Assembly: GCA_964492745.1 (NCBI GenBank)
Contig: CAZBLT010000004.1
Span: 28,668-92,667, forward strand
Reading direction: 5' to 3'
DNA from: an uncultured Anaerolineaceae bacterium
Lineage (GTDB): Bacteria; Chloroflexota; Anaerolineae; Anaerolineales; E44-bin32
Length of the DNA: 64,000 bases
A program made the translations under genes and the position numbers. Each line of letters begins with the position of its first letter. Position 1 is the stretch's first letter. The notes under the pieces are model-generated. The model did not search any database, was not told the DNA's origin, and was given only the letters and a program-made list of their open reading frames with translations. Shown here piece after piece: positions 12,089 to 56,588 of the stretch.

Positions 12089-15000
12089 CTACTCGGTGGG
12101 CGAGGGGCTAGGCGTCGTGGAGGGGATCGGCGTCAGCGTGACCGTGGGCGTTGGCGTCGCCGTGGGCGTGAGAGTCTGAGTCGGCGTTGCGGTTGGCGTG
12201 GGCGTGGGCGTGGGAAGCAGGATATTCAGGTGCAGGTCGACCGAGGCCTTGCCGCCACGCTCGCTGCGCACGGTAAGCCGCAAGGTCACCTGGCCATTCG
12301 GAACTTCCTGCAGGTCCCAATCGAGGAGCTTGCCCGGCTGACGGAGGGGATCCCGGCCGCTGGCGATATCAGGCCAATGCCGGGGCTGCGATCCGGTCCC
12401 TAATTCTAGAATCCAATCTTTGAATTCAGAGGTGGCCGCCGCGCGGGCGAAGATCGCCACTGGACTGGTGGTGATCGTCGCGCCCTCTGGCGGGCTTGTG
12501 AAGGCCAAAATGGGGCGGGGGCTATCGGCGTTGCAGGTGGCCTTGGGGATGAAGAAGAGCGGATCTTCATCGAATCCCATCTCCTCCGCCCAGGCCTTGC
12601 CGGCAGGGTCCTCCCGGAGCCATCTTCGGGCCCAGGGGTCATCAACATTGAGGCCCAGTTTCTCCACCGCATACTCTGAGCATTCCGTGGACGCCAACTC
12701 CAGGGCGAAGCTATCCACCCAGACCTTCTTCCACAGGTCTTGCTCCTTGGGGAGAGGTGGCTGATCGCTGGCGAAGATCTCGGTCTTCTGCCGGGGGCAC
12801 CATTCGGATGGCTCCGTGCCGGAGATGGCACAGATAATGCGGTCGACGACGCCCGCCGGGCGCACCGTGGGGCTGGGAATGCCCCCGGTGAGCCGATCCT
12901 GCGCGAATTGCATGAACTGATTCCAGATGGGCGCAGCGCCAGTCAGGCCCGAGGTGTTGACCATGGGCGTGTAATCCGCGTTGCCCACCCAGACGCCCAC
13001 GGCGACGTCGGGCGTATAGCCCAGGGTCCAGTTATCGCGGAAGTCGTTGGTGGTCCCAGTCTTGGCAGCGGCCTTGAAGGGCAGCCGCAGCGCCGAATTG
13101 GGCCCGAAAGCCGGGGTGCGGGCCTCGTTATCGCTGAGGATGTCGGTGATGAGGTAGGCGTGTTCGGGCCGGATGACTTGCTCGCCCTGGGCCTCATGCT
13201 CGTAGACAATTGCGCCCTCGCGATCCTCGATGCGCAGGATGCCTGTGGGGGCAACCCGAAGACCGTTATTCGCCAGGGTTGCATAGACGGAGGTCAATTC
13301 CAGGAGGGTCACGTCTCCGCCGCCGAGGGTGAGAGAGAGCCCGTAGTCCTGGCGGTCCAGGGTGGTGATGCCCACGCGGCGGGCAAAGGGGATCAGGCCC
13401 TCCTCGGCGGGCGTCAGCGGGTCATCGTAAATGCCCACATAGGCCAGGGCTTTCACGGCGGGCACGTTGTAAGAATTGGCCAGCGCCGACCGCACCGTCA
13501 CGGGACCGTGGAAACGGTTATCGTAATTGACGGGCTTATAGGGCGGCCGGAGGTCACTGGGATCCCCCGAGGGCGGGAATTCGGAGGGCACATCCCAGAT
13601 CAAGGTGGCAGGCGTCCAGCCCTTCTCGAACGCGGCGGTGTAGGTGAGGGGCTTGATGGAGGAGCCAGGCTGCCGGGGCCGGATGGCCATGTTTACCTGG
13701 CCATCGATGGCTTCGTTGTAGAAATCCGCCGAGCCCACCATGGCGAGAATCTCGCCTGTAGAGGGCCGGATGGCGACCAGCGCGCCGTTTGTGGCTCTCT
13801 TCTCGGCCAGCGCATCCACCTGCTGGCGCACGATTTCCTGGGCCTGCTGCTGCAGGACGGGGTCCAGACTTGTGTGGACGGTGAAACCGGAGCGATAGAT
13901 CGTCTGGGGGTCGAACAGGCTTTCGAGCTCGGCGCGAATGAAGTGGACCCAGTGCGGGAAGCGGATCTGGATATCCGGAGTCTGGAATTCATAGGCGGCG
14001 ATTTCCGCTGCGGCCATGCCAGCTTCTTCAGCCGAAATGCAAATCGGCTGTTGGGCGTTGCTGACGTAGATGCAGCCCTGCTCCCGGCTGGTCTCAACCA
14101 TCAAGGTCAGCACCTGCCGGTGACGGGCGAGCGTGGCCTGGCGGTTGGTGTAGATGTCGTAGACCGAGGGTGCCTGGACGAGCCCGGCCAGGAAGGAAGC
14201 CTGGGCGAGGGTCAGCTTATCGGCGGTGGTGTTGAAGTAGGTCTCCGCGGCGGCCTCCACGCCGTAGGCGAGATTGCCGAAGTAGCTCTGGTTCAGGTAG
14301 AGCTCGAGGATCTCGTCCTTCGAGTAGCGACGTGTGATCTCCGCCGCCAGAAGGACCTCGCGGGTCTTGCGCCGCGCCGTACGGCGAGCGCGCTCCTCGG
14401 GCGAGAAGAGCAGATTGCGGGCGATCTGCTGGGTGATGGTGGAGGCTCCAGAGACGACATCCCCCTGGGTGTAGTTCTGCCACACGGCGCGCAGGATGGC
14501 CAGCAAGTCAAACCCCGGGTGACTGTAAAACTGGGAGTCCTCGGTGGCCAGGATGGCGGCCACCATGTACGGCGAGATGCGATCCAGCGGAACGTAGGTT
14601 CTGCGGCCGGCGTTGGGGTCGAGAATCTCGTAGAGCAAGTTCCCCTGCCGGTCCAGGATGCGTGTGGTTTCAAACTGGGCGGCATGCTGCTGGAGGTCTT
14701 CCACGGGAGGAAGCGTGGCCGCCAGCGCGTAATACTGGTAGATGCCAAATGTGATAACGCCGATCAGCAGTGCGGCGGACAGAAACAAGCCCAGGATCCC
14801 CATACGGAGCAGGCAGCCCCCGCAGCCGCTCCAGGTCGAAGGGCGCAGGATTTGCATGCCTTCCAGGGACCTGGGGATATGGAAGGCTGCAGGCACCACC
14901 CGGGTGCCGTCCAGGTCGTTCTCCGGGACGGGCCGGGGCAACTCCCGATCCACGGGCGGCTCGGAAGGGGGCGCGGGCTGGGGTTGAGAGTGATCGGTCT

Positions 15001-23050: not shown

Positions 23051-23644
23051 TCAGGCAGAAGGGGATTGCTGATCTGGCTCGCGGTGGAAGCTCTCGACTT
23101 GATAGGTATAGATCTCGACATCGCCCTGCTTCCAGGCGCCAGCGGGGAGGTATGCCTTCTGGCAGAGCAGGTCGAGGAACTGGCGGGGGTCCGGTATCTT
23201 TTCCCACACCTGTGGGAGGAAAGTGCCGCGGTTCAGCCCGCGCGCAAGGATGACTCCGTCGATGCCCGGGCGCAGGAGTGAAGGGATCTGCTCAGGTGTT
23301 TCATATTCCAGGGGATCGGGCTGAGTGAGGACCGAGACTTCTACGGTCGTGTAGGGAACTTCCTCAGGCCTCAGCGGCGGGAAGCGGGGATCCTCCCTGG
23401 CTGCCGCCATCGCCCGCAGGACGACATCTTGCGCCAGAGGGAGCTGCAGTTTGATGGTGCCGATGCAGCCTCGGAGGACCCCATTCTGGGTGAGGGTCAC
23501 GAAGCTCGCACCCGGTTCGCGGAGCCGCTGCGTGAGTTGGCTGAGATCAGGTTCAGGAGCGGGCTGGTTCTGGGCGGCTGCCTGAACAGCCGCGCAGGCC
23601 AGGTCGAGCAGGACGCGCTTCTCTTCTTCCGTCAAGGTTGACAT
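23051..23644 (-). CDS. AMMECR1 domain protein (AmmeMemoRadiSam system protein A-like)
   Basis: 197 aa. GASFVTLTQNGVLRGCIGT and the RFPPL...E..V.VSVL motifs are typical of AMMECR1. Confidence 0.85.
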   Translation of the reverse strand: MSTLTEEEKRVLLDLACAAVQAAAQNQPAPEPDLSQLTQRLREPGASFVTLTQNGVLRGCIGTIKLQLPLAQDVVLRAMAAAREDPRFPPLRPEEVPYTTVEVSVLTQPDPLEYETPEQIPSLLRPGIDGVILARGLNRGTFLPQVWEKIPDPRQFLDLLCQKAYLPAGAWKQGDVEIYTYQVESFHREPDQQSPSA

Positions 23645-23746: not shown

Positions 23747-24667
23747 TCAGCCAAAGAGAACACGAAGAACAGAGGTGGAAAAGTCTGTGAGATCCCGGAG
23801 GTCCTTTGCAAAGATTCGCCGGAGACTCTTCGGGCCGATCAGCAGGGCCGGCACAGGGTTCTCGGTGTGTCCGCGCCGCGAGAGGTCTTCCAGATTTCCA
23901 TGGTCGGAAGTGATCACGATCAGGTCGCGCCGGCGTCCCCAGGCCTCGACCAGTGCGGCGAGCACAGCATCCAGAGTTTCGAGGAGACGGAGGGCCTCCG
24001 GCATCTTGCCGCGGTGACCGACGTAATCGCTGGGCCAATAGTCAAACCACGCCAGTTGGTAGCGCCTGGCCAGCTCTGCCAATAGGCGTCCAGCATCCAG
24101 CGGTGTGTACACCGGCGCGGGCGGGAACTGGGGTTGTGCCGCCCAGCCTTCTCCGGTGAAATCGGCGGAGAGTGCGCTTCCCTCTTGGAGGTCCGCGGCG
24201 GTCATGAGCGGCAATCCGGCGGTGTGGGCGGCGAGCGGGATGGCGGAGTAAAGCCGGCGGCCGGAGAGGATCGAGTCGAAGTAGCGGGGCGGATAGGCGT
24301 TGAGCAGAGCCGCGGTTCCCCCTCTTTGCAGAGTCTCCTGGAAGAGATTGCCTTCCCGCAGGATGCTTGCGATCAGGCCATTGGGCTTGGGGCCGTAGTG
24401 GGAGCCGATTCTCGCCGGGACGTTTTCTCCTGTAAGGAGAGCCGCCTGCCCCGAAGCCGATTGGGGTCGTCCGGCCACGCCCAGTGCGGCATCCAGCGCA
24501 AGCAGTGTGGCGTGCGGACCTTCGAAGGGAGCCGCGCCGGCGGCCAGCGGTTGCCCATTCAGCAGATGTGCCAGGCCAGGCATCCGGGCGCGAACGAAGG
24601 GGTTCCGCTCCGGATCGGGCTCTCCCAGCCCCACCCCGTCGAGGAAGAGAACCAAGATGCGGGTCAC
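23747..24667 (-). CDS. Alkaline-phosphatase-superfamily metalloenzyme (iPGM/phosphopentomutase-like)
   Basis: MTRILVLFLDGVGLG provides metal-binding Asp residues near the N-terminus, and ITSDHGNLED lies near the C-terminus. The gene overlaps the upstream methyltransferase gene by 4 nt. Confidence 0.7.
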   Translation of the reverse strand: MTRILVLFLDGVGLGEPDPERNPFVRARMPGLAHLLNGQPLAAGAAPFEGPHATLLALDAALGVAGRPQSASGQAALLTGENVPARIGSHYGPKPNGLIASILREGNLFQETLQRGGTAALLNAYPPRYFDSILSGRRLYSAIPLAAHTAGLPLMTAADLQEGSALSADFTGEGWAAQPQFPPAPVYTPLDAGRLLAELARRYQLAWFDYWPSDYVGHRGKMPEALRLLETLDAVLAALVEAWGRRRDLIVITSDHGNLEDLSRRGHTENPVPALLIGPKSLRRIFAKDLRDLTDFSTSVLRVLFG

Positions 24668-25233
24668 CTGTTCTCAACCCTCCAGTGGTACCAGGCCGAG
24701 GTCCGGCCCCGATCCTCGCCTTGTGTGACCTGAACGAGTTGCATGTGCGCTGAGAATAGTGCCCGAATCGCATACTCGGTGGGTGCACCTGACGGGTCGC
24801 CGGGTCGGGCCCGTACCTTGGTGTAGAGAAGGTAATCGGCGCCGGGATGCAGCCGGGTTAGAAGGCAGGCTACGTAGCGTGATTGCGCAACCGGGGCCAG
24901 GGCGTGGAAGCAACCGATGTCCAGCGCGAAATCGAAGGGTCCCTCGATGCTTGGCAGACGGCTCACATCGGCCCGCTTGAACACCGCCGCCAAGCCTGCG
25001 CGGCGAGTCTTCTGGCGCGCCATCAGGATAGCCAGAAGCGATATATCCACTCCCACCGCGCGCCAGCCATAGCGCGCCATCGTGAGGGTGTTGGTGCCTG
25101 TGCCGCAACCTAGATCGATGGCGGAGGCGGGTTCGCGCTCCTCAAGGAAGGCGGTCAATTCGGGGGGAGAGATGCCGGTATCCCACGGCGCGTGCCGTGT
25201 GAGGTAGCGCCACTCAAAGATGACCCTCCGCAT
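24664..25233 (-). CDS. Class I SAM-dependent methyltransferase, TPMT/TehB-like
   Basis: WRYLTRHAPWDTGISPPELTAFL followed by AIDLGCGTGTNT (motif I). Its ATG overlaps the stop of the thioredoxin-like gene (cTGATG). Confidence 0.8.
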   Translation of the reverse strand: MRRVIFEWRYLTRHAPWDTGISPPELTAFLEEREPASAIDLGCGTGTNTLTMARYGWRAVGVDISLLAILMARQKTRRAGLAAVFKRADVSRLPSIEGPFDFALDIGCFHALAPVAQSRYVACLLTRLHPGADYLLYTKVRARPGDPSGAPTEYAIRALFSAHMQLVQVTQGEDRGRTSAWYHWRVENR

Positions 25234-25718
25234 CAGGGGCCCTCATCCAGGCTTGCGGCGACCTCTCGCGGATCCACCGCTCCCACGGTCCGCCACAGCT
25301 CCTGGCCCTGGCCATCGATGAAGATGAAGGTAGGCGTATATTGGAAAGGATAACGCTCCATCCAGGGCTGGCTTGCGGGGTCTTGCACGTTCAGCCGCAG
25401 CACCGTCAGCTCACCCGCGTGGTCTCTCTCGATTCCATCCACGATGGGTTTCATCGCCATGCAGCCCAGTCAATAAGGGCTCTGGAACTCGAGCAGGACA
25501 GGCTTTCCGCCGCCCACGATTTGTGCGACTTGGTCGGCTCTCGCAGTGGCGCTGCGGCCGGGGCTGAACAGAAAATAGGTGAGGCTCAGGCCCAGTAGCA
25601 ATGCAGCCAGCGCCAGCGCCTTACCTAGGTCCAGACCCCCGCGGCGTAGGAATGCCAGCAGGACTAGAAGAAGCGCGCCGGCGGCGATCGTGAAGGAATT
25701 CTGGTTGATGAATATCAT
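25233..25718 (-). CDS. Membrane-anchored thioredoxin-like selenoprotein candidate (UxxC; in-frame TGA at 25472..25470)
   Basis: Track ORFs 25470..25718 and 25233..25460 are in the same frame and separated only by TGA-CTG-GGC-TGC. The joined reading ...KPVLLEFQSPY-U-LGC-MAMKPIVDGIERD...YTPTFIFID places the TGA at the first Cys of a Trx CxxC motif. An N-terminal TM helix is present. Confidence 0.75.
25435..25447 (-). promoter_or_regulatory. Candidate SECIS hairpin for the thioredoxin-like gene
   Basis: The mRNA reads CCAUC-GUG-GAUGG, starting 22 nt after the UGA. Flanking GAU/AUC pairing is possible. The apical loop contains GU. Confidence 0.5.
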
Positions 25719-25800
25719 GGCACCTCATCTGTGCGCTATTTGCATTCTATCACCCAGCCCCCCATGGAGATGGATCGAGGCCCCTCCGCGGGGCTTCGTC

Positions 25801-25874: not shown

Positions 25875-27950
25875 ATGAAAGAATATCCCACCGACAAGCT
25901 CCGCAATATCGCCCTGGTTTCACATAGCGGTGGCGGAAAGACCATCCTGGGTGAGGCCATGTTGTTTGTGACCGGTGCCATCACCCGCATGGGCAAGATC
26001 GAGGAGGGCAATACGGTCTCCGACTTCGAGGAGGAGGAGATCCGTCGCAATTTGTCGCTGTCAACCGCCATCCTTCCAGTCGAATTCAAGGACCACAAGC
26101 TTAATCTGCTGGACACGCCCGGCTACACCGATTTCATCGGCGAGGCCATCTCGGCGTTGAGCATCGCTGATGCAGCCGTAGTGCTTGTGGATTCGGTCGC
26201 AGGCGTGGAAGTGGGCACCGAAATCCTCTGGGACTACAGCAACCGCTTTGCGCTTCCGCGCTTCATCGTGATCAGCAAGATGGATCGCGAGAATGCTAAT
26301 TTTCAGGCTGCGCTGGCATCTGTGCAAAATCTACCCACCGAAGCCACCTTCATCCCGGTGCAATTGCCCTGGGGTGAGAAGCAGGACTTCCAGGGGGTCA
26401 TCGACCTGTTCACCATGAAGGCCCGTCCAGGAGAAGGGAAGGACGAGCAGGAAATCCCCGCCGAGCTTCAAGATCAGGCCGAAGAAGCCCGGCTTGCACT
26501 GGTAGAAGCCGCCGCAGAGGGCGACGACGCCTTGCTTGAGAAGTACCTGGAGGGCGGGGAGCTCAGCGCCGAGGAGGTGATGCGCGGCTTCAAGCAGGCG
26601 ATCCTGGCCGGCCGCTTCGTGCCGGTTTTCGTCACCGCCGGCGGCAAGGCCCATGGGGTCTACCCGCTCATGGAAGCCATGGTGGACTTGTTACCCGCAC
26701 CCACAGAAATGAAGCCGAGGGTGGGGCAGGGGCCGCAGGGCGAGGTCGAGATCCAGGCCTCCGACGCGGGGCCATTGGTGGCCTATGTGTGGAAGACCAC
26801 GGCAGATCCCTTCGTTGGCAAGCTGACCTATTTGCGGGTGTTCTCTGGTGTGCTCGAGTCGGACAGCCGTGTCTGGAACCACGCCAAGGAGGCTGAAGAG
26901 CGGCTGGGGACGTTGTATGTGATGCGCGGCAAGGAGCAATTTGGTGTTTCGAAGCTGCACGCAGGGGATATCGGCACCGTGGCTAAACTGGGCGAGGTAG
27001 CGACCGGCGATACGCTGGGTGACAAGGCGGCCGCCATCCAGGTGCTGATGCCGGAATATCCCAGCGCGTTGTACGCCGTGGCAGTCAAGCCCAAGACCCA
27101 GGCTGATTCGACCAAGATCAGCCCCACTTTGACGCGCCTCTGCGAGGAGGATCCGACTCTATCCTGGCATCAGGAAGGCAGCACCAATCAGACCATCCTC
27201 CAGGGCATGGGCGATCAGCATATTGACGTGGCCATCCGCAAGGCAGAGGCCAAATTCCAGGTGGGGCTCAAGACCGAGATCCCCAAGGTACCCTACCGGG
27301 AGACGATCACCAAGGTCGGGCACTCGCAATACCGCCACAAGAAGCAAACTGGCGGGGCGGGCCAATTCGCCGAAGTGCACATGCGAATCGAGCCGCTGGA
27401 GCAGGAAGAGTTCGAGTTCGTGAACGAGGTCTTCGGCGGGGCCATCTCATCCGGTTTCATGCCGGCCATCGAAAAGGGCGTGCGGGGGGTGATGAAATCT
27501 GGGGTGATTGCGGGCTACCCGATCGAGAAAGTCAAGGTGGCCGTCGTGGACGGCAAGGAGCACCCAGTGGACTCGAAGGCCGTGGCGTTCGAGATCGCGG
27601 GACGGGAGGCATTTAAGCTGGCATTCCGTGACGCGGGGCCTGTGCTACTCGAGCCCATTATGAACGTCCGCATCACCGTGCCTGAAGCCAACATGGGCGA
27701 CGTTTTGGGCGACCTGAACACGCGCCGGGCGCGCGTCCAAGGCATGGAGACAGAGCACGGCCGCAGCGTGGTGACGGCTCAGGTTCCGCTGGCGGAGATC
27801 CAGCGCTATACGACTGACCTGCGTTCGATCACTGGCGGCCGTGGCGTGTTCTCCATGGAGCTGAGCCACTATGAGGTGGTTCCGCCCCACGTCGCCGAGG
27901 AGATCGTTGCAGCACGCCAGCGTGAGCTGAGCAAGGAAGAAGCCGGCTAG
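25875..27950 (+). CDS. Elongation factor G paralog (EF-G2-like translational GTPase)
   Basis: 691 aa. The P-loop is SHSGGGKT, G3 is DTPGYTDF and G4 is SKMD (canonical NKMD). EF-G domains II-V are recognisable. The gene is not in an rpsL-rpsG-fusA-tuf context. Confidence 0.85.
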   Translation: MKEYPTDKLRNIALVSHSGGGKTILGEAMLFVTGAITRMGKIEEGNTVSDFEEEEIRRNLSLSTAILPVEFKDHKLNLLDTPGYTDFIGEAISALSIADAAVVLVDSVAGVEVGTEILWDYSNRFALPRFIVISKMDRENANFQAALASVQNLPTEATFIPVQLPWGEKQDFQGVIDLFTMKARPGEGKDEQEIPAELQDQAEEARLALVEAAAEGDDALLEKYLEGGELSAEEVMRGFKQAILAGRFVPVFVTAGGKAHGVYPLMEAMVDLLPAPTEMKPRVGQGPQGEVEIQASDAGPLVAYVWKTTADPFVGKLTYLRVFSGVLESDSRVWNHAKEAEERLGTLYVMRGKEQFGVSKLHAGDIGTVAKLGEVATGDTLGDKAAAIQVLMPEYPSALYAVAVKPKTQADSTKISPTLTRLCEEDPTLSWHQEGSTNQTILQGMGDQHIDVAIRKAEAKFQVGLKTEIPKVPYRETITKVGHSQYRHKKQTGGAGQFAEVHMRIEPLEQEEFEFVNEVFGGAISSGFMPAIEKGVRGVMKSGVIAGYPIEKVKVAVVDGKEHPVDSKAVAFEIAGREAFKLAFRDAGPVLLEPIMNVRITVPEANMGDVLGDLNTRRARVQGMETEHGRSVVTAQVPLAEIQRYTTDLRSITGGRGVFSMELSHYEVVPPHVAEEIVAARQRELSKEEAG

Positions 27951-34574: not shown

Positions 34575-34647
34575 GGGCCTGTGGCGCAGTTGGGAGCGCG
34601 CATCAATCGCACTGATGAGGTCGCGGGTTCGAATCCCGCCAGGTCCA
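34575..34647 (+). tRNA. tRNA-Ala (anticodon CGC)
   Basis: Manual cloverleaf: acceptor GGGCCTG/CAGGTCC with the G3:U70 Ala identity pair, D-arm GCGC-AGTTGGGA-GCGC, anticodon arm CATCA-ATCGCAC-TGATG and T-arm GCGGG-TTCGAAT-CCCGC. The discriminator is A and no CCA is encoded. Confidence 0.9.
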
Positions 34648-34656
34648 CTCGAGCAA

Positions 34657-34732
34657 GGGCCCATGGCGCAGCTGGGAGCGCGTCTCAATGGCATTGAGAA
34701 GGTCGTGGGTTCGAATCCCACTGGGTCCACCA
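34657..34732 (+). tRNA. tRNA-Ala (anticodon GGC), CCA encoded
   Basis: Acceptor GGGCCCA/TGGGTCC with G3:U70, anticodon arm TCTCA-ATGGCAT-TGAGA and T-arm GTGGG-TTCGAAT-CCCAC, followed by ACCA. Confidence 0.9.
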
Positions 34733-54400: not shown

Positions 54401-54887
54401 CACCCTGCCGGTAGGCCTCAGGCGCTTTGCCCCAGGCGAGGCGGTCTTGAGTTTGATTCTGCGGGTTGCGCAGAAGCAAACCGCCCCCTGATGTATTCAG
54501 GCTCTGCTCGAAGCGTGCGTCGGGTGTTCGCCCAATCTCTTCCCCAGATCGGACAAGCAGGTAGAAGCCCCGGGGAGGGATCAACGCCGGACGGGTCCAT
54601 TCATAGACGGGCAGGTCCTCTTCACTCGTGGCCAGCCGGTACCAGAGCGACCATCCCTGCAAATCGATCGGTTGATCGGATGGGTTATGAAGCTCGATGA
54701 ATTCGAAATTGTTGTTCCCGGGCGTACCCGCCATCACCTCGCTGATTATCGGGGAGGAGGGGGCAAATCCAGGAGCGGGCGTGCTGGGGCCAGTTGCTGG
54801 GACGCACGACACCAAGACGACGAGCGCGAGGGCAACGGGAAGGGCATGATGGGTTCGATGCATGTTGCTAGTCCTTTGAACAATCAT
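51414..54887 (-). CDS. ExeM/NucH-family extracellular nuclease (lamin-tail domain ... endonuclease/exonuclease/phosphatase domain), lipoprotein
   Basis: Signal peptide/lipobox ALALVVLVSC and an LTD (ISEVMAGTPGNNNFEFIELHNPSDQPIDLQGWSL). The C-terminal EEP domain carries VMTWNVENLFD...GDLNSF...SDHDP. An alternative start lies at 54863. Confidence 0.8.
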   Translation of the reverse strand: MIVQRTSNMHRTHHALPVALALVVLVSCVPATGPSTPAPGFAPSSPIISEVMAGTPGNNNFEFIELHNPSDQPIDLQGWSLWYRLATSEEDLPVYEWTRPALIPPRGFYLLVRSGEEIGRTPDARFEQSLNTSGGGLLLRNPQNQTQDRLAWGKAPEAYRQGEPAPAIEAGCSLQRRQEALGKLEPPNHAQDFLLVNTPDPQNVATASVSTPLRLKATIEAQPKPGETFHLTLLLENLADDPLSVSSVSFDLPEGVELRPLQERLTLSEGRAVWTPGALEPGGVLTRQVALVAPWTYLQAPIRNIMAVLEPPTSYAFSETLWIEIREGAIPVSIARSLVGSEVTVEGTATMYTGGYFAGSGNVKFYVEDPSGGVQVWVPSGEGELAVSIGDKIRVRGLMDLYRGAAELIPGSPEDVELLQEGEPPVPLSVPLGQAATDMENLPGRLVTVQGTATRIEEFSYSYEMDLADETGAILTLYIDKKTGISVEPFEEGRAYQASGILEVRDGLIQLYPRQAADLREIHPAAVILEVDAPTNVLPGTPFDLTLRAINYTDSPVHDLEIWVDAQPAGSRILQVLDGGITSMGEIRWQIAALEPGGSAAEVHLRLQPSPGASTASLSDFGLRLKQDVDYQVEPATPTHIGATVPISAIQGPGERSPYRLKPLTTRGVITGVFPDLGGFWIQSLESDGNPATSEGLFVALDPVPEDLSPGQAVEVRGQVREISSQTELHPASVADVHILEVAAATPTPVPLDPPASPESSAAYYETLEGMLVGVYDRAVVVGPTNRFGETVVTLAKHGRTRFWRGGDTGLLITVDDGSSEAHEDQSTLPYSLSNGDQMTDLMGPLAYTYGSYKIETLEAPRVEKAPISLPWLKAEPPDVFRVMTWNVENLFDILAPHPASPPLPRKSEYERDLSKVADTILAAGAPTLVGLQEVEHIGILEDLAALPGLLPYDYQPILIEGTDGRGIDVGYLVRGDRAQILEARAFPAPEGLTSRPPLMIRVRVQTTQGKTTLYLLNNHFTSMSGGEEATEPRRIEQAAWNVEILERILSKDDHAHVIVLGDLNSFYDSGPLEVLRDAGLRHVFERLAPEDRYTYVYRGVSQALDHILVTPGLFDQLVDATVLHLDADYGLPSPDDTTALRKSDHDPLIAEFMLAD

Positions 54888-55780
54888 GATGGGGGCGGAG
54901 ATCCTCTACGACTCTTGCGCAGGATCTCCCGGAAGCGCGGGCGCAGCGCAGCAATAATAGGGGAGGGCTGCGGGGGCTGCCAGCCGCGGGTAGCCTCCTC
55001 CACAGGCTCCGGCCAGGTTTCCGGGCTGTGCACGATAGTCCCGGGCTCTTCAGCCTGCTCAAGCAATCCGAGGGCCTGGCTGAGCACTCGCAGATGCATC
55101 TCGGCATCCCTCGGCTGGCCGAGCGGATGGCCGAAGGGAAATTCTACGCCCAGCGTGCGGGGAGTGCCTATGCGTTCGGCCCAGTAGGGCATCATGGAGA
55201 TGACAACGGTAGCCAGTCCAGCAGCTTCGAGCGTGCGTGCCAACACGGGCACGTTGATGGCGCAGTCTGGTCAAGCCGGAGTGAGAATCACGCAATCCAC
55301 CCCAGCATGCACGAAACGGTCGGCCACCTCCGGGCCATAGGTCTTCTCCCAGGCCGTGGTATCTGGGGGGAAGCCCTGAAAGCCCATGAAGGAGAAATGT
55401 TCCGGGGCCACGGCCCCGATGACGCCGCCCTCGGCCAATCTATTCAGAGGTTCGATGGGCAACAGAATGTTGAAATCAGCCTCGGCGTCACGTGCGTTGT
55501 AATGCAAGTGGCCCACCCCCAAATCAGCCGGGTGGACATTGGTCGGGATAGGCCGGTATGTCGGGTCTCCCCAAGTGGGCTGCTGTTTCTCGCGCTCGAG
55601 GTCAAACGGGGGCTGAGAATCACGCAGGTAAAGGCCTCCGGAGGTGACCAATCCGATGGTGCACTCGGACAGCGGGCGGGGAAGCGGTGTCCAGGGGATG
55701 GGGAGTCGCCGCTCGACATCGGCCATTCGATAGTAAGTGGCGATTATGCGGGGCAGGAACTTGAAGCTATCAACCGTCAT
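54884..55780 (-). CDS. GrdB-family (glycine/sarcosine/betaine reductase selenoprotein B-like) selenoprotein candidate; in-frame TGA at 55273..55271
   Basis: Track ORFs 55271..55870 and 54884..55252 are in frame. The joined reading is ...HAGVDCVILTPA-U-PDC-AINVPVLARTLEAAGL.... IGLVTSGGL, LPIEPLNRLAEGGVIG and GVD.VILT..U..C match the Sec region of clostridial GrdB as I recall it. The start is trimmed to the ATG at 55780 (AGGAG RBS). Confidence 0.75.
55236..55253 (-). promoter_or_regulatory. Candidate SECIS hairpin for the GrdB-like gene
   Basis: The mRNA reads CGUGCC-CGUGUU-GGCACG, a 6-bp stem starting 17 nt after the UGA. The loop contains GU. Confidence 0.5.
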
Positions 55781-55820
55781 CGGCACTCCTGAGTTGTTGC
55801 AGGTCAAGGAACCCTGTGTG

Positions 55821-56588
55821 CTAGGCGCTGGACACCCGGCCCAGCGCCTTGCAGGTGAGCCCGGGATCATCGCTCAGCACCGCATCGCATCCCAGGAAAC
55901 GATAATACCAGAGGCGGGGTTCGGGGGTGGGGTCGAGCGGGCAGAGCAGCTGCCCGAGCGCGTGAGCCCACAGCACGTAGAGTGGGTTGGCAAGCAGCAG
56001 GGGCCAGAAGGGCCCGACCATCTCGAAACCTCGCGCCGGCCAGGGGTGGGAGGCGGTGATCCATCCGGTCGGCAGTTCGGGAGCTGCTTTACGGACCGCC
56101 GCCAGCCGTGCGCGGCTGAAGGAAAGGACGACAGTGCGATCGATCAGATCGTGATGGTCGAGCAGGTCCCGCAGGCGGTGATTGACCTTCGGTTCGAGGA
56201 AGCGGTCGCTCTTCAGTTCGAGCGCCAAGGCGCGGTCGGGCGGGACCAAGGCTGCTAATTCGTCAAGGGTGGGGATAGGTTCGGGTCCACGATCCGGACG
56301 TCCCGCCGCGGCGTCCAGCCGTTTGAGCTCCGAGAGGGTCATTTCGGCCACGGCGCCCTGGCCGTTCGTGGTCCGGTCCACGGTTGGGTCATGAATGCAG
56401 ATGAAGACTCCATCCCGGGATAGGTGCAGGTCCGTCTCGAGGATGTCAGCGCCGTCCAAAATTGCCTGGCGAAAGGCTGAGAGCGTGTTCTCGGGAAAGG
56501 CAACCCGGTTGCCCCGGTGGGCCATGACATAGGGCTTCTTGCGATCGGGGAGGGCAAGCATTCGGCCGGGGGACTTGGGCGGCTTCAT
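55821..56588 (-). CDS. Glycerophosphodiester phosphodiesterase (GDPD/UgpQ-like)
   Basis: MAHRGNRVAFPENTLSAFRQAI..GADILETDLHLSRDGV.ICIHD.TVDRTTNG is the GDPD signature. Confidence 0.85.
   Translation of the reverse strand: MKPPKSPGRMLALPDRKKPYVMAHRGNRVAFPENTLSAFRQAILDGADILETDLHLSRDGVFICIHDPTVDRTTNGQGAVAEMTLSELKRLDAAAGRPDRGPEPIPTLDELAALVPPDRALALELKSDRFLEPKVNHRLRDLLDHHDLIDRTVVLSFSRARLAAVRKAAPELPTGWITASHPWPARGFEMVGPFWPLLLANPLYVLWAHALGQLLCPLDPTPEPRLWYYRFLGCDAVLSDDPGLTCKALGRVSSA

Follow-up and report, generated by a model that had tools for sequence, protein, structure and literature searches.

Of all bacterial selenoproteins, those with a thioredoxin fold and a UxxC motif are the most common, and gene callers routinely cut bacterial selenoprotein genes in two. 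Among the described systems are selenocysteine-containing thioredoxins (Trx, PF00085, UxxC), for example that of Treponema denticola (PMC13188914, PMC1794560). A second group consists of exported or membrane-associated thiol:disulfide oxidoreductase selenoproteins and includes a thiol:disulfide interchange protein, DsbA-like and DsbG-like proteins and a UGC-containing TlpA family (PMC13188914, PMC5029168). Further Trx-like selenoprotein families, among them SaoT, HUIPC-motif, VPGUxxT and TsoB, are listed in PMC13188914. For the bacterial SECIS element (bSECIS), a model is available that specifies an apical loop of 3–9 nt with a G at loop position 1 or 2, an upper stem of 4–16 bp, a UGA-to-loop spacing of 16–37 nt and a minimum free energy of -7.5 kcal/mol or lower (PMC13188914).

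The window analyzed here is a 64,000-nucleotide stretch of DNA from an uncultured Anaerolineaceae bacterium. Translation of its open reading frames (ORFs) yielded an 82-aa ORF (25470..25718) and a 75-aa ORF (25233..25460) that lie in one frame on the minus strand, separated by TGA CTG GGC TGC alone, as noted in a first-pass annotation of the same DNA. That annotation gave no strand; the orientation is corrected here to minus, 25718..25233 (Table 1). Translation of the joined frame agreed with the 161-aa product quoted there. Comparison with related sequences indicates with high confidence that the internal stop is a selenocysteine (Sec) codon, and that the two ORFs constitute a single gene for a membrane-anchored thioredoxin-like oxidoreductase with a U-L-G-C motif, its Sec insertion being directed by a SECIS element.

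Table 1. Features of the putative selenoprotein locus (window coordinates).
Feature	Position	Strand	Remarks
Recoded CDS, full	25233..25718	-	161 codons plus terminal TGA; internal UGA read as Sec
Start codon ATG	25718..25716	-	recoded CDS
Terminal stop TGA	25235..25233	-	recoded CDS
In-frame UGA, proposed Sec codon, residue 83	25470..25472	-	first position of the U-L-G-C redox motif
UxxC active-site motif, TGA CTG GGC TGC (U-L-G-C)	25461..25472	-	C86 invariant in family
SECIS-like hairpin, 5'-CCCAUC GUG GAUGGA-3'	25434..25448	-	conservation, compensatory changes, bSECIS fit
TM helix 1, about residues 9–24	25647..25694	-	hydropathy; helix 8–27 in P0002 model
TM helix 2, about residues 33–51	25566..25622	-	hydropathy; helix 33–51 in P0002 model
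Thioredoxin-fold domain, residues 69–158	25245..25514	-	PF13098 and PF00085; profile against solved thioredoxins; homolog model
cis-Pro-type T-P-T motif	25329..25337	-	within thioredoxin-fold domain
SAM-dependent methyltransferase, TPMT/TehB-like, 189 aa	24664..25233	-	Pfam TPMT and Methyltransf_25

For Pfam searches, the stop was replaced by Cys. The resulting protein matched Thioredoxin_2 (PF13098) with 35.7 bits (cut-off 27) and Thioredoxin (PF00085) with 34.1 bits (cut-off 23.5). A profile of the family matched solved thioredoxins with E = 2.5e-15, and in this alignment the U column coincided with the leading Cys of WCGPC, and TPT with IPT. The AlphaFold2 model of a Cys homolog (P0002) was used as a stand-in for the window protein. 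It had a pLDDT of 90.2, a beta strand at residues 74–79, a helix at 84–99 and CxxC at 83–86, and its best structural matches were thioredoxins (TM about 0.8). Model and alignment thus show the arrangement typical of the fold, with CxxC following beta-1 where helix alpha-1 begins and a cis-Pro loop ahead of beta-3. The score against the NCBIfam TrxA equivalog TIGR01068 was 38.2 bits and did not reach the cut-off of 96.8, so the protein is classified as thioredoxin-like and not as a TrxA ortholog. Redoxin (PF08534), AhpC-TSA (PF00578) and DsbA gave no Pfam match at E <= 1, and the 50 PDB matches listed by Foldseek included no structure of the Redoxin/AhpC-TSA type. The Trx/TlpA-like fold named in the first-pass annotation was thus retained in its thioredoxin part, which Pfam, profile and structure matches all support, and a TlpA/ResA/CcmG-type (Redoxin) classification was rejected. 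Among the NCBIfam families for Trx-like selenoproteins (SaoT, HUIPC-motif, VPGUxxT and others), TsoB was the one match listed, at 17.6 bits against a cut-off of 805.

An N-terminal membrane anchor had also been proposed. The anchor was upheld, with two helices instead of a single one according to both hydropathy and the P0002 model. The distribution of charges puts the loop between the helices inside the cell, and the Trx domain is probably tethered to the outer face of the membrane. With the Sec-thioredoxins, the family shares the Trx fold, Sec in place of the N-terminal nucleophilic Cys of CxxC, the occurrence of Cys orthologs beside Sec forms and a SECIS element in the coding region just past the UGA. 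It differs from them in the two-helix N-terminal anchor and probable extracytoplasmic location, in a motif of the type SPY-U-x-[AG]-C instead of W-U-G-P-C, in scoring far under the NCBIfam thioredoxin equivalog cut-off, and in its distribution, which so far seems limited to Anaerolineales and related Chloroflexota. The exported thiol:disulfide oxidoreductase selenoproteins are likewise extracytoplasmic Trx-fold redox proteins with Sec in a CxxC-type motif. Unlike those, the present family lacks Redoxin, AhpC-TSA and DsbA matches, is closest to classical thioredoxins and carries a helical-hairpin anchor and not a signal peptide or single span.

The codon at the catalytic position was compared across homologs. 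In full-length database proteins of ~160 aa (n = 49), C83 and C86 are invariant, and the UGA codon aligns with the first of these. The stop thus lies at the first Cys of CxxC, where it had been placed in the first-pass annotation, by alignment with homologs as well as with WCGPC. Six further database proteins end exactly at the UGA column or show W there; the contigs fetched for them (L001–L007) carry an in-frame TGA in 7/7 cases, and the frame continues beyond it. Among the best 80 loci on one-genome-per-species contigs, nearly all of them from Anaerolineales or Anaerolineae MAGs, the codon is TGA in 57 and TGC or TGT in 23. When all 88 family sequences were compared, TGA was found in 65, TGC or TGT in 23 and TGG in none. 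Such alternation of TGA with Cys codons, and never with TGG, is the signature of Sec/Cys exchange. Homologs with C or an in-frame TGA at this column, and Cys-containing orthologs in related genomes, had been named beforehand as the expected evidence; the orthologs were found in the 23 loci and the 49 database proteins. A neighbour-joining tree of the family requires at least 8 Sec/Cys switches. To judge how unusual this pattern is, 4342 in-frame TGA junctions were tested in 1.29 Mb (window and related loci), and the present site was the sole column family with exclusively TGA (65) or Cys (23). Almost all other recurrent TGA junctions were C/W/* mixtures, mostly stops, or low-complexity translations, and were discarded as wrong-frame artefacts.

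The reading frame is preserved on both sides of the site. It is open for at least 84 codons before the UGA site in 87/87 loci examined and for 71–87 codons past it in 87/87 (86 loci plus the window), and no full-length homolog loses the downstream frame, as homologs ending at the column would have done. The ordinary terminator is also TGA in 73/86 family loci. In the window, TGA terminates 10 of the 18 Pfam-supported genes, which is consistent with the standard genetic code. These data bear on the possibility of a nonsense pseudogene, i.e. a thioredoxin-like gene that was inactivated by a TGC to TGA change and is decaying. A single base change does turn TGC or TGT into TGA, and public records show the gene as two fragments, a 'hypothetical protein' and an unnamed piece. 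This explanation is nevertheless considered very improbable, since the TGA is kept in the 57 of 80 species-level genomes and in relatives down to ~40% protein identity, the downstream codons are intact everywhere, and the catalytic, TPT (cis-Pro) and other motifs are conserved across the family. In addition, the TGA forms share an RNA hairpin that is selected at synonymous sites (see below), which would be senseless in a dead gene.

A sequencing or assembly error that produced TGA from TGC or TGT has nothing in its favour beyond the general possibility of such errors in metagenome assemblies. The exact 82-aa ORF was recovered on 9 contigs, which come from assemblies of NCBI (GCA_029934135.1 among those with the identical ORF), Logan, JGI and ENA. 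The split into 82 + 75 aa was identical at the five of these places that were displayed, and TGA occurs at the site in 64 other related loci. Because the same split gene is present in independent assemblies, the chance of such an error, raised in the first-pass annotation as a possible refutation, is practically negligible.

Alternatively, the locus might hold two small genes, one for a membrane peptide of 82 aa with two helices and one for a 75-aa protein whose start is the ATG at 25460. It is also conceivable that the 82-aa product is the sole functional one. Exactly these two ORFs are called in all assemblies. In known systems, Sec insertion has to compete with termination at the UGA, and some 82-aa product is therefore probably made. 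Against separate genes, the Cys-form orthologs are single 160-aa proteins, and the three codons between the ORFs are the conserved xxC of the motif. The 75-aa piece would start inside helix alpha-1 and lack beta-1 and the redox motif, as judged from the thioredoxin alignment and the P0002 model and in line with the first-pass annotation. Two genes are accordingly regarded as hardly credible.

The single-gene reading with Sec at the UGA is supported further by a hairpin in the coding sequence. CCAUC-GUG-GAUGG was located where it had been described, beginning 22 nt past the UGA. In the window, it has five inner pairs (25447..25443 with 25439..25435) and a GUG loop (25442..25440), with a C.A mismatch at the outermost position. 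The family consensus, CCC-AUC/GUC-GUG-GAU/GAC-GGG, has a 6-bp stem and begins 21 nt past the UGA, the loop beginning at 27 nt; the window hairpin is a slightly weakened copy with GGA replacing GGG. At least five of the six stem pairs are formed in 63/63 unique TGA forms compared to 4/23 Cys forms (Fisher p = 1.6e-15), and all six in 51/63 unique TGA forms. Compensatory changes occur at two stem pairs. Pair 4 in the TGA forms is A-U in 45, G-C in 15 and G-U in 2, with a mismatch in the remaining 1, and 3 sequences have U-A instead of C-G at pair 3 despite the resulting Gly-to-Arg change. Paired cells amounted to 86.7% versus 24–48% in slid controls, and the observed covariation was reached by no shuffle.

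The hairpin codes for P-I-V-D-G in helix alpha-1, and its synonymous sites are constrained. The Pro codon is CCC in 60/63 TGA forms versus 8/23 Cys forms (window background 0.40), and the Gly codon is GGG in 53/63 TGA forms (background 0.28). Some Cys forms also retain P-[IV]-V-D-G in part, and selection on the protein could therefore account for a share of the sequence conservation. The consensus hairpin has an energy of -7.9 kcal/mol, and the G-C variants range from -12.4 to -13.9 kcal/mol. The window copy (5 bp, -5.0 kcal/mol, z = -0.85) is the weakest variant and lies above the model's limit of -7.5 kcal/mol; when the 48 nt past the UGA are folded, the structure of lowest energy contains a competing pairing of GCGAUG with CAUCGU. 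The significance of the hairpin thus derives from conservation and covariation across relatives, and not from its energy in the window.

The bSECIS geometry agrees with that of the hairpin (3-nt GUG loop beginning with G-U, 6-bp stem, 5 bp in the window, 27-nt spacing). Proposed in the first-pass annotation as a SECIS candidate, it is conserved, covarying and specific to TGA forms. Like bacterial SECIS elements in general, for which E. coli fdhF is the paradigm, it is a coding-region stem-loop that follows the UGA and has a small apical loop starting with G-U, at a spacing within 16–37 nt. It differs from the general bSECIS model in being very small (15 nt; 6-bp stem, 3-nt loop) and near-invariant in sequence over more than 60 species, with no fitting Rfam model. 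Neither a lower stem nor a bulge was found to be conserved, RNAalifold detecting nothing conserved outside the hairpin. Bacterial SECIS elements are poorly represented in Rfam, and no SECIS family was matched at gathering thresholds (whole window) or at E <= 10 (25200..25760). Those scans yielded two tRNA-Ala genes and a miRNA match attributed to chance, and nothing else. A second match to the hairpin pattern (27540..27553) sits inside an uninterrupted EF-G gene and was dismissed as chance.

Genes for Sec decoding were searched for in the window and in the 87 loci (1.29 Mb in total). Neither selA, selB, selD nor tRNA-Sec was found there with ARAGORN and with tblastn using E. coli SelA, SelB and SelD, and Pfam identified no Sec machinery among 26 window ORFs. 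A neighbouring 691-aa GTPase was considered as SelB and rejected as an EF-G paralog (TIGR00475, 31 bits versus 242). When E. coli SelA was used as query in a large protein search, the 120 matches listed were all enterobacterial, which is uninformative for Anaerolineales. For Anaerolinea thermophila UNI-1, SelD, SelA, SelB and 4 selenoproteins have been recorded (Peng et al. 2016, supplement Table S1, PMC5029168). In the window itself, a PrdB/GrdB-family gene is interrupted by an in-frame TGA (55273..55271). Two homologs (P0218 and P0222) have Cys at this column, and more than 100 homologs stop there, those named by NCBI mostly as 'selenoprotein B family protein [Anaerolineales bacterium]'. This gene has a conserved SECIS-like hairpin of its own. 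Given a second UGA-interrupted gene, from an established selenoprotein family, in the same window, the organism very probably decodes Sec.

Read-through of the UGA without Sec was also weighed. It might involve a near-cognate tRNA (Trp or Cys) with stimulation by the hairpin, or Sec machinery inserting Cys when selenium is scarce. The missing Sec machinery genes in the 1.29 Mb would be compatible with it, as would the W that some gene callers placed at the codon in P0004 and P0049. These W calls, however, result from gene calling with an alternative code, and the underlying DNA has TGA. The codon counts at the column, with TGG at zero, the agreement of loop, G-U content and spacing with the bacterial SECIS model, and the same kind of signal in an established selenoprotein-family member of the window also speak against this explanation, which is considered improbable.

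Under the favoured reading as a selenoprotein gene, the UGA at 25472..25470 would be decoded by Sec-tRNA(Sec) delivered by SelB. The signal would be the SECIS hairpin within the coding sequence, with its 6-bp consensus stem and its GUG loop 27 nt past the UGA. The second UGA, at 25235..25233, is without such a hairpin and would bring about normal termination. Sec83 would stand at the N-terminal end of helix alpha-1, where thioredoxin has its nucleophilic Cys. There it may attack substrate disulfides, and the resulting selenenylsulfide would be resolved by Cys86.

In the protein database, full-length entries exist for the Cys minority only. Together with the split records, this makes the Anaerolineales selenoprotein clade (57/80 of the nearest species representatives) effectively invisible to protein-based surveys. 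The gene is a well-supported, unsurprising addition to a known class of bacterial selenoproteins and leaves the understanding of selenoproteins unchanged. The family does provide a clean natural collection of sequences for studying recurrent exchange between Sec and Cys, in which the SECIS element constrains synonymous sites and also the amino-acid sequence of the catalytic helix, and the matched Cys forms are usable as controls.

A wider interpretation is put forward tentatively and is rather doubtful. It would see an uncatalogued Anaerolineales clade of exported, membrane-tethered seleno-thioredoxins in which Sec is ancestral and in the majority, in which an unusually minimal, near-invariant 15-nt SECIS dictates P-[IV]-V-D-G in helix alpha-1, and whose function is linked to that of the TPMT/TehB-like methyltransferase. 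The two might, for example, make up a membrane module for handling or methylating chalcogens or thiols. The methyltransferase ATG overlaps the terminal TGA of the thioredoxin gene (TGATG), and both genes thus probably form one operon. The methyltransferase lies directly downstream in 72/86 family loci, in Sec and Cys forms alike.

With high probability, the split thioredoxin-like gene is a real selenoprotein gene. It keeps one conserved frame and encodes a thioredoxin fold; Sec and Cys replace each other at the catalytic column, and a covarying hairpin is specific to TGA forms. Translation in a single frame gave ...EFQSPY*LGCMAMKPIVDGIE...YTPTFIFIDGQGQELWR..., and the spacer between the two ORFs (see table) consisted of TGA CTG GGC TGC and nothing else. 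The first-pass annotation had described both ORFs, their common frame, the spacer, the joined sequence and a hairpin CCAUC-GUG-GAUGG starting 22 nt 3' of the UGA; all were present on re-examination. The sequencing or assembly error that it named as a possible refutation was contradicted, since the exact 82-aa ORF recurred on 9 contigs of independent assemblies (NCBI GCA_029934135.1; two Logan runs; JGI 3300003332, record name GBSed; ENA ERZ2433807) and the 82 + 75 split was identical in the five places shown. The in-frame TGA is therefore not an artefact. HHH83619.1, an 82-aa protein that is near-identical to the ORF and shares its 90%-identity cluster, was named 'hypothetical protein [Chloroflexi bacterium]'; in the cluster of the C-terminal fragment, no member in public records carried a name.

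Coordinates of the split gene and of other features in the window
Feature	Position	Strand	Details
Split thioredoxin-like gene	25718..25233	minus	161 codons
82-aa ORF	25470..25718	minus	ends in TGA at 25472..25470
75-aa ORF	25233..25460	minus	frame shared with 82-aa ORF
Segment folded 3' of UGA	25425..25472	minus	48 nt
TPMT/TehB-like SAM methyltransferase	24664..25233	minus	starts on A of the thioredoxin gene's terminal TGA (TGATG)
AMMECR1-family gene	23051..23644	minus	'AmmeMemoRadiSam system protein A', TIGR04335, 194 bits
EF-G paralog	25875..27950	plus	NF009381, 895 bits
Two tandem tRNA-Ala genes	34575..34732	plus	anticodons CGC and GGC, 9 nt apart
PrdB/GrdB-family gene	54884..55870	minus	in-frame TGA 55271..55273, VILTPA-U-PDC; hairpin 55236..55253

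A large protein collection yielded 53 relatives, 49 of them full-length (about 160 aa, 37–57% identity). Where the source gave names, full-length homologs were labelled thioredoxin family proteins or thiol-disulfide isomerases, and NCBI names pointed to Anaerolineales or Anaerolineae MAGs. Both cysteines of SPY-C-x-x-C were invariant in the alignment of 47 full-length homologs and the window product. Four matches (database proteins P0050–P0053) terminated exactly at ...EFQS(P/N)(Y/F), and two (P0004, P0049) showed W at the column. The DNA of these six proteins, seven contigs (L001–L007), had the codon TGA in every case, and the frame stayed open across an intact thioredoxin domain as far as the normal C-terminus. 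A real Trp in P0004 and P0049 was rejected because the DNA has TGA, not TGG; the W translations apparently come from gene callers applying an alternative code to short contigs. Public calls of this kind (P0004, P0049, P0183; loci L005–L007) present the Sec codon as W, giving full-length but wrong 'Trp' selenoproteins.

A contig scan with one genome per species found 217 relatives. DNA was retrieved for the top 80, which came almost entirely from Anaerolineales, Anaerolineae or Chloroflexota MAGs (closest, 93% identity). Among these best 80 of 217, the column codon was TGA in 57 and TGC or TGT in 23. Homologs thus alternate between TGA and Cys codons, and the Cys-containing orthologs sought by the first-pass annotation were found at those 23 loci and among the 49 full-length proteins. 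The frame was open for 71–87 codons 3' and at least 84 codons 5' of the site in 87/87 loci examined, which contradicts the reading that homologs consistently end here. The true terminator was TGA in 73/86 loci, so that one mRNA carries one recoded and one terminating UGA. A reassigned genetic code is excluded, as TGA ends 10 of the 18 Pfam-supported window genes. Sec and Cys forms were interspersed in a neighbour-joining tree; parsimony required 8 or more switches and inferred Sec at the root. Across 4342 in-frame TGA junctions in 1.29 Mb, only this site formed a column family in which TGA and Cys were the sole states. At the other recurrent junctions the column was a C/W/* mixture dominated by stops, with Cys and other residues in small numbers, or the translation was of low complexity; these were read as wrong-frame artefacts.

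In TGA forms, codons 8–12 3' of the UGA read CCC AUC/GUC GUG GAU/GAC GGG, which gives a stem of 6 bp capped by the loop GUG. At least 5/6 stem pairs were present in 63/63 unique TGA-form sequences (6/6 in 51), versus only 4/23 Cys forms, the other 19 having 0–4 (Fisher p = 1.6e-15). Among the 63, pair 4 was A-U in 45 and G-C in 15, with two G-U pairs and one mismatch, so the Ile/Val codon and the synonymous third position of the Asp codon covary. In three sequences (CCU...AGG) pair 3 was U-A in place of C-G, even at the price of Gly to Arg. RNAalifold recovered the helix from a 46-sequence alignment with two compensatory pairs; 86.7% of cells were paired versus 24–48% with the partner slid, and 0/500 shuffles reached the observed covariation. 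The Pro codon was CCC in 60/63 TGA forms versus 8/23 Cys forms and a frequency of 0.40 in window genes, and the Gly codon was GGG in 53/63 TGA forms versus a background of 0.28. Synonymous sites of the hairpin are thus constrained in TGA forms. The peptide K-P-[IV]-V-D-G showed almost no variation in Sec forms, whereas Cys forms could vary here, the pattern expected where a coding region also carries an RNA signal. Two Cys-form loci retained a perfect 6-bp hairpin (L064:4611, CCGGUC-GUG-GACCGG; L065:10237, CCUGUC-GUG-GAUGGG); these look like fossil SECIS elements from recent Sec-to-Cys conversions.

The published bacterial SECIS model (PMC13188914) specifies an upper stem of 4–16 bp and a loop of 3–9 nt that lies 16–37 nt from the UGA and has G in its first two positions, in many cases with G or U next. 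The energy may not exceed -7.5 kcal/mol. The family hairpin, conserved, covarying and TGA-specific, fits in loop (GUG), stem (6 bp) and spacing (27 nt), which bears out the SECIS scan proposed earlier. Folding energy was -7.9 kcal/mol for the consensus and -12.4 to -13.9 for G-C-rich variants. In the window copy GGA replaces GGG, so the outer pair is lost and only 5 pairs remain, at -5.0 kcal/mol versus the limit of -7.5. In the minimum-energy fold of the segment 3' of the UGA, GCGAUG paired with CAUCGU in competition with the SECIS hairpin. Competing fold and lost pair are a real weakness of the window copy. In L008, the closest relative, GGG is present and the GCGAUG sequence is shared, possibly with the same competing fold. 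Rfam contained no family matching the hairpin in a whole-window scan or a relaxed scan around the gene.

With Cys substituted for the stop, Pfam gave Thioredoxin_2 at 35.7 bits (threshold 27) and Thioredoxin at 34.1 (23.5). The family profile matched solved thioredoxins (E = 2.5e-15), placing the U column at the first WCGPC cysteine and T-P-T opposite the cis-Pro I-P-T. An AlphaFold2 model of the Cys homolog P0002 (pLDDT 90.2) showed helices 8–27 and 33–51 followed by a beta-alpha-beta-alpha-beta-beta-alpha thioredoxin fold, the CxxC starting helix 84–99; its best PDB matches were classical thioredoxins (target TM about 0.8). Of the proposed Trx/TlpA-like fold the thioredoxin part stands, and the TlpA-like class is unsupported, the joined product having no Pfam match to Redoxin or AhpC-TSA. 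No NCBIfam model, selenoprotein-specific ones included, reached its cut-off. The proposed N-terminal anchor is hydrophobic but comprises two helices, not one. Lys+Arg averaged 2.3 in the loop between them across the family, and the 15 residues following helix 2 averaged 1.2 Lys+Arg and 2.4 Asp+Glu; by the positive-inside rule, this distribution suggests that the thioredoxin domain faces the outer side of the membrane.

The neighbourhood was common to Sec and Cys forms. The methyltransferase lay directly downstream in 72/86 loci of both forms, followed by a metalloenzyme-superfamily gene and the AMMECR1-type gene. Methylation of selenium and tellurium compounds is known for members of the TPMT/TehB-like methyltransferase families. 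The EF-G paralog was divergent and upstream in 79/86 loci; its identity as SelB was rejected (TIGR00475, 31 bits versus a cut-off of 242).

No tRNA-Sec, selA, selB or selD was found in the window or the related loci (1.29 Mb), and the matches listed in a protein search with E. coli SelA were all enterobacterial. As indirect support, the Peng et al. 2016 supplement records Anaerolinea thermophila UNI-1 as positive for SelD, SelA and SelB, with four selenoproteins (PMC5029168). A composition-filtered scan of TGA junctions revealed the PrdB/GrdB-family gene, in which the Pfam GRDB match extends up to the TGA and TIGR04483 (PrdB) spans the site with 147 bits. More than 100 homologs (169 aa) end exactly at this column, those named by NCBI being mostly 'glycine/sarcosine/betaine reductase selenoprotein B family protein [Anaerolineales bacterium]'; two homologs have Cys there and one has W. 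Its hairpin (CGUGCC-CGUGUU-GGCACG, -9.9 kcal/mol) has the loop 23 nt 3' of the UGA, and TGA and hairpin recur in two other MAGs (L095, L096). Given two independent UGA-interrupted genes with SECIS-like hairpins in 64 kb, one of an established selenoprotein family, the organism very likely decodes Sec.

SelB carrying Sec-tRNA(Sec) would bind the hairpin and decode the UGA 27 nt 5' of the loop. Sec83 would act as nucleophile and Cys86 as resolving residue, in an enzyme presumably active on the outer face of the membrane and recycled by a reductant. Termination at the UGA probably also yields some of the 82-residue product, particularly under selenium scarcity. UxxC thioredoxin-fold proteins are the commonest bacterial selenoprotein class, and existing catalogues list selenothioredoxin as well as several thiol:disulfide oxidoreductase selenoproteins that are exported (PMC13188914, PMC1794560, PMC5029168); the present gene would work like these and is of the same kind. 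New are the membrane-anchored Anaerolineales family itself, which may already sit in BSepDB under generic thioredoxin, the predominance of Sec over Cys within it, and a SECIS that is very short and almost without sequence variation.

One Anaerolineae MAG locus (L072) carried the family gene in its Cys form and, about 2 kb downstream, a paralogous lipoprotein-type thioredoxin-like gene (L072:11894..12736) with an in-frame TGA at about 12492..12494 (FFRFT-U-STC). The paralog's hairpin, CCCGU-CGUGC-ACGGG, lies at the same codon offset as that of the main family.
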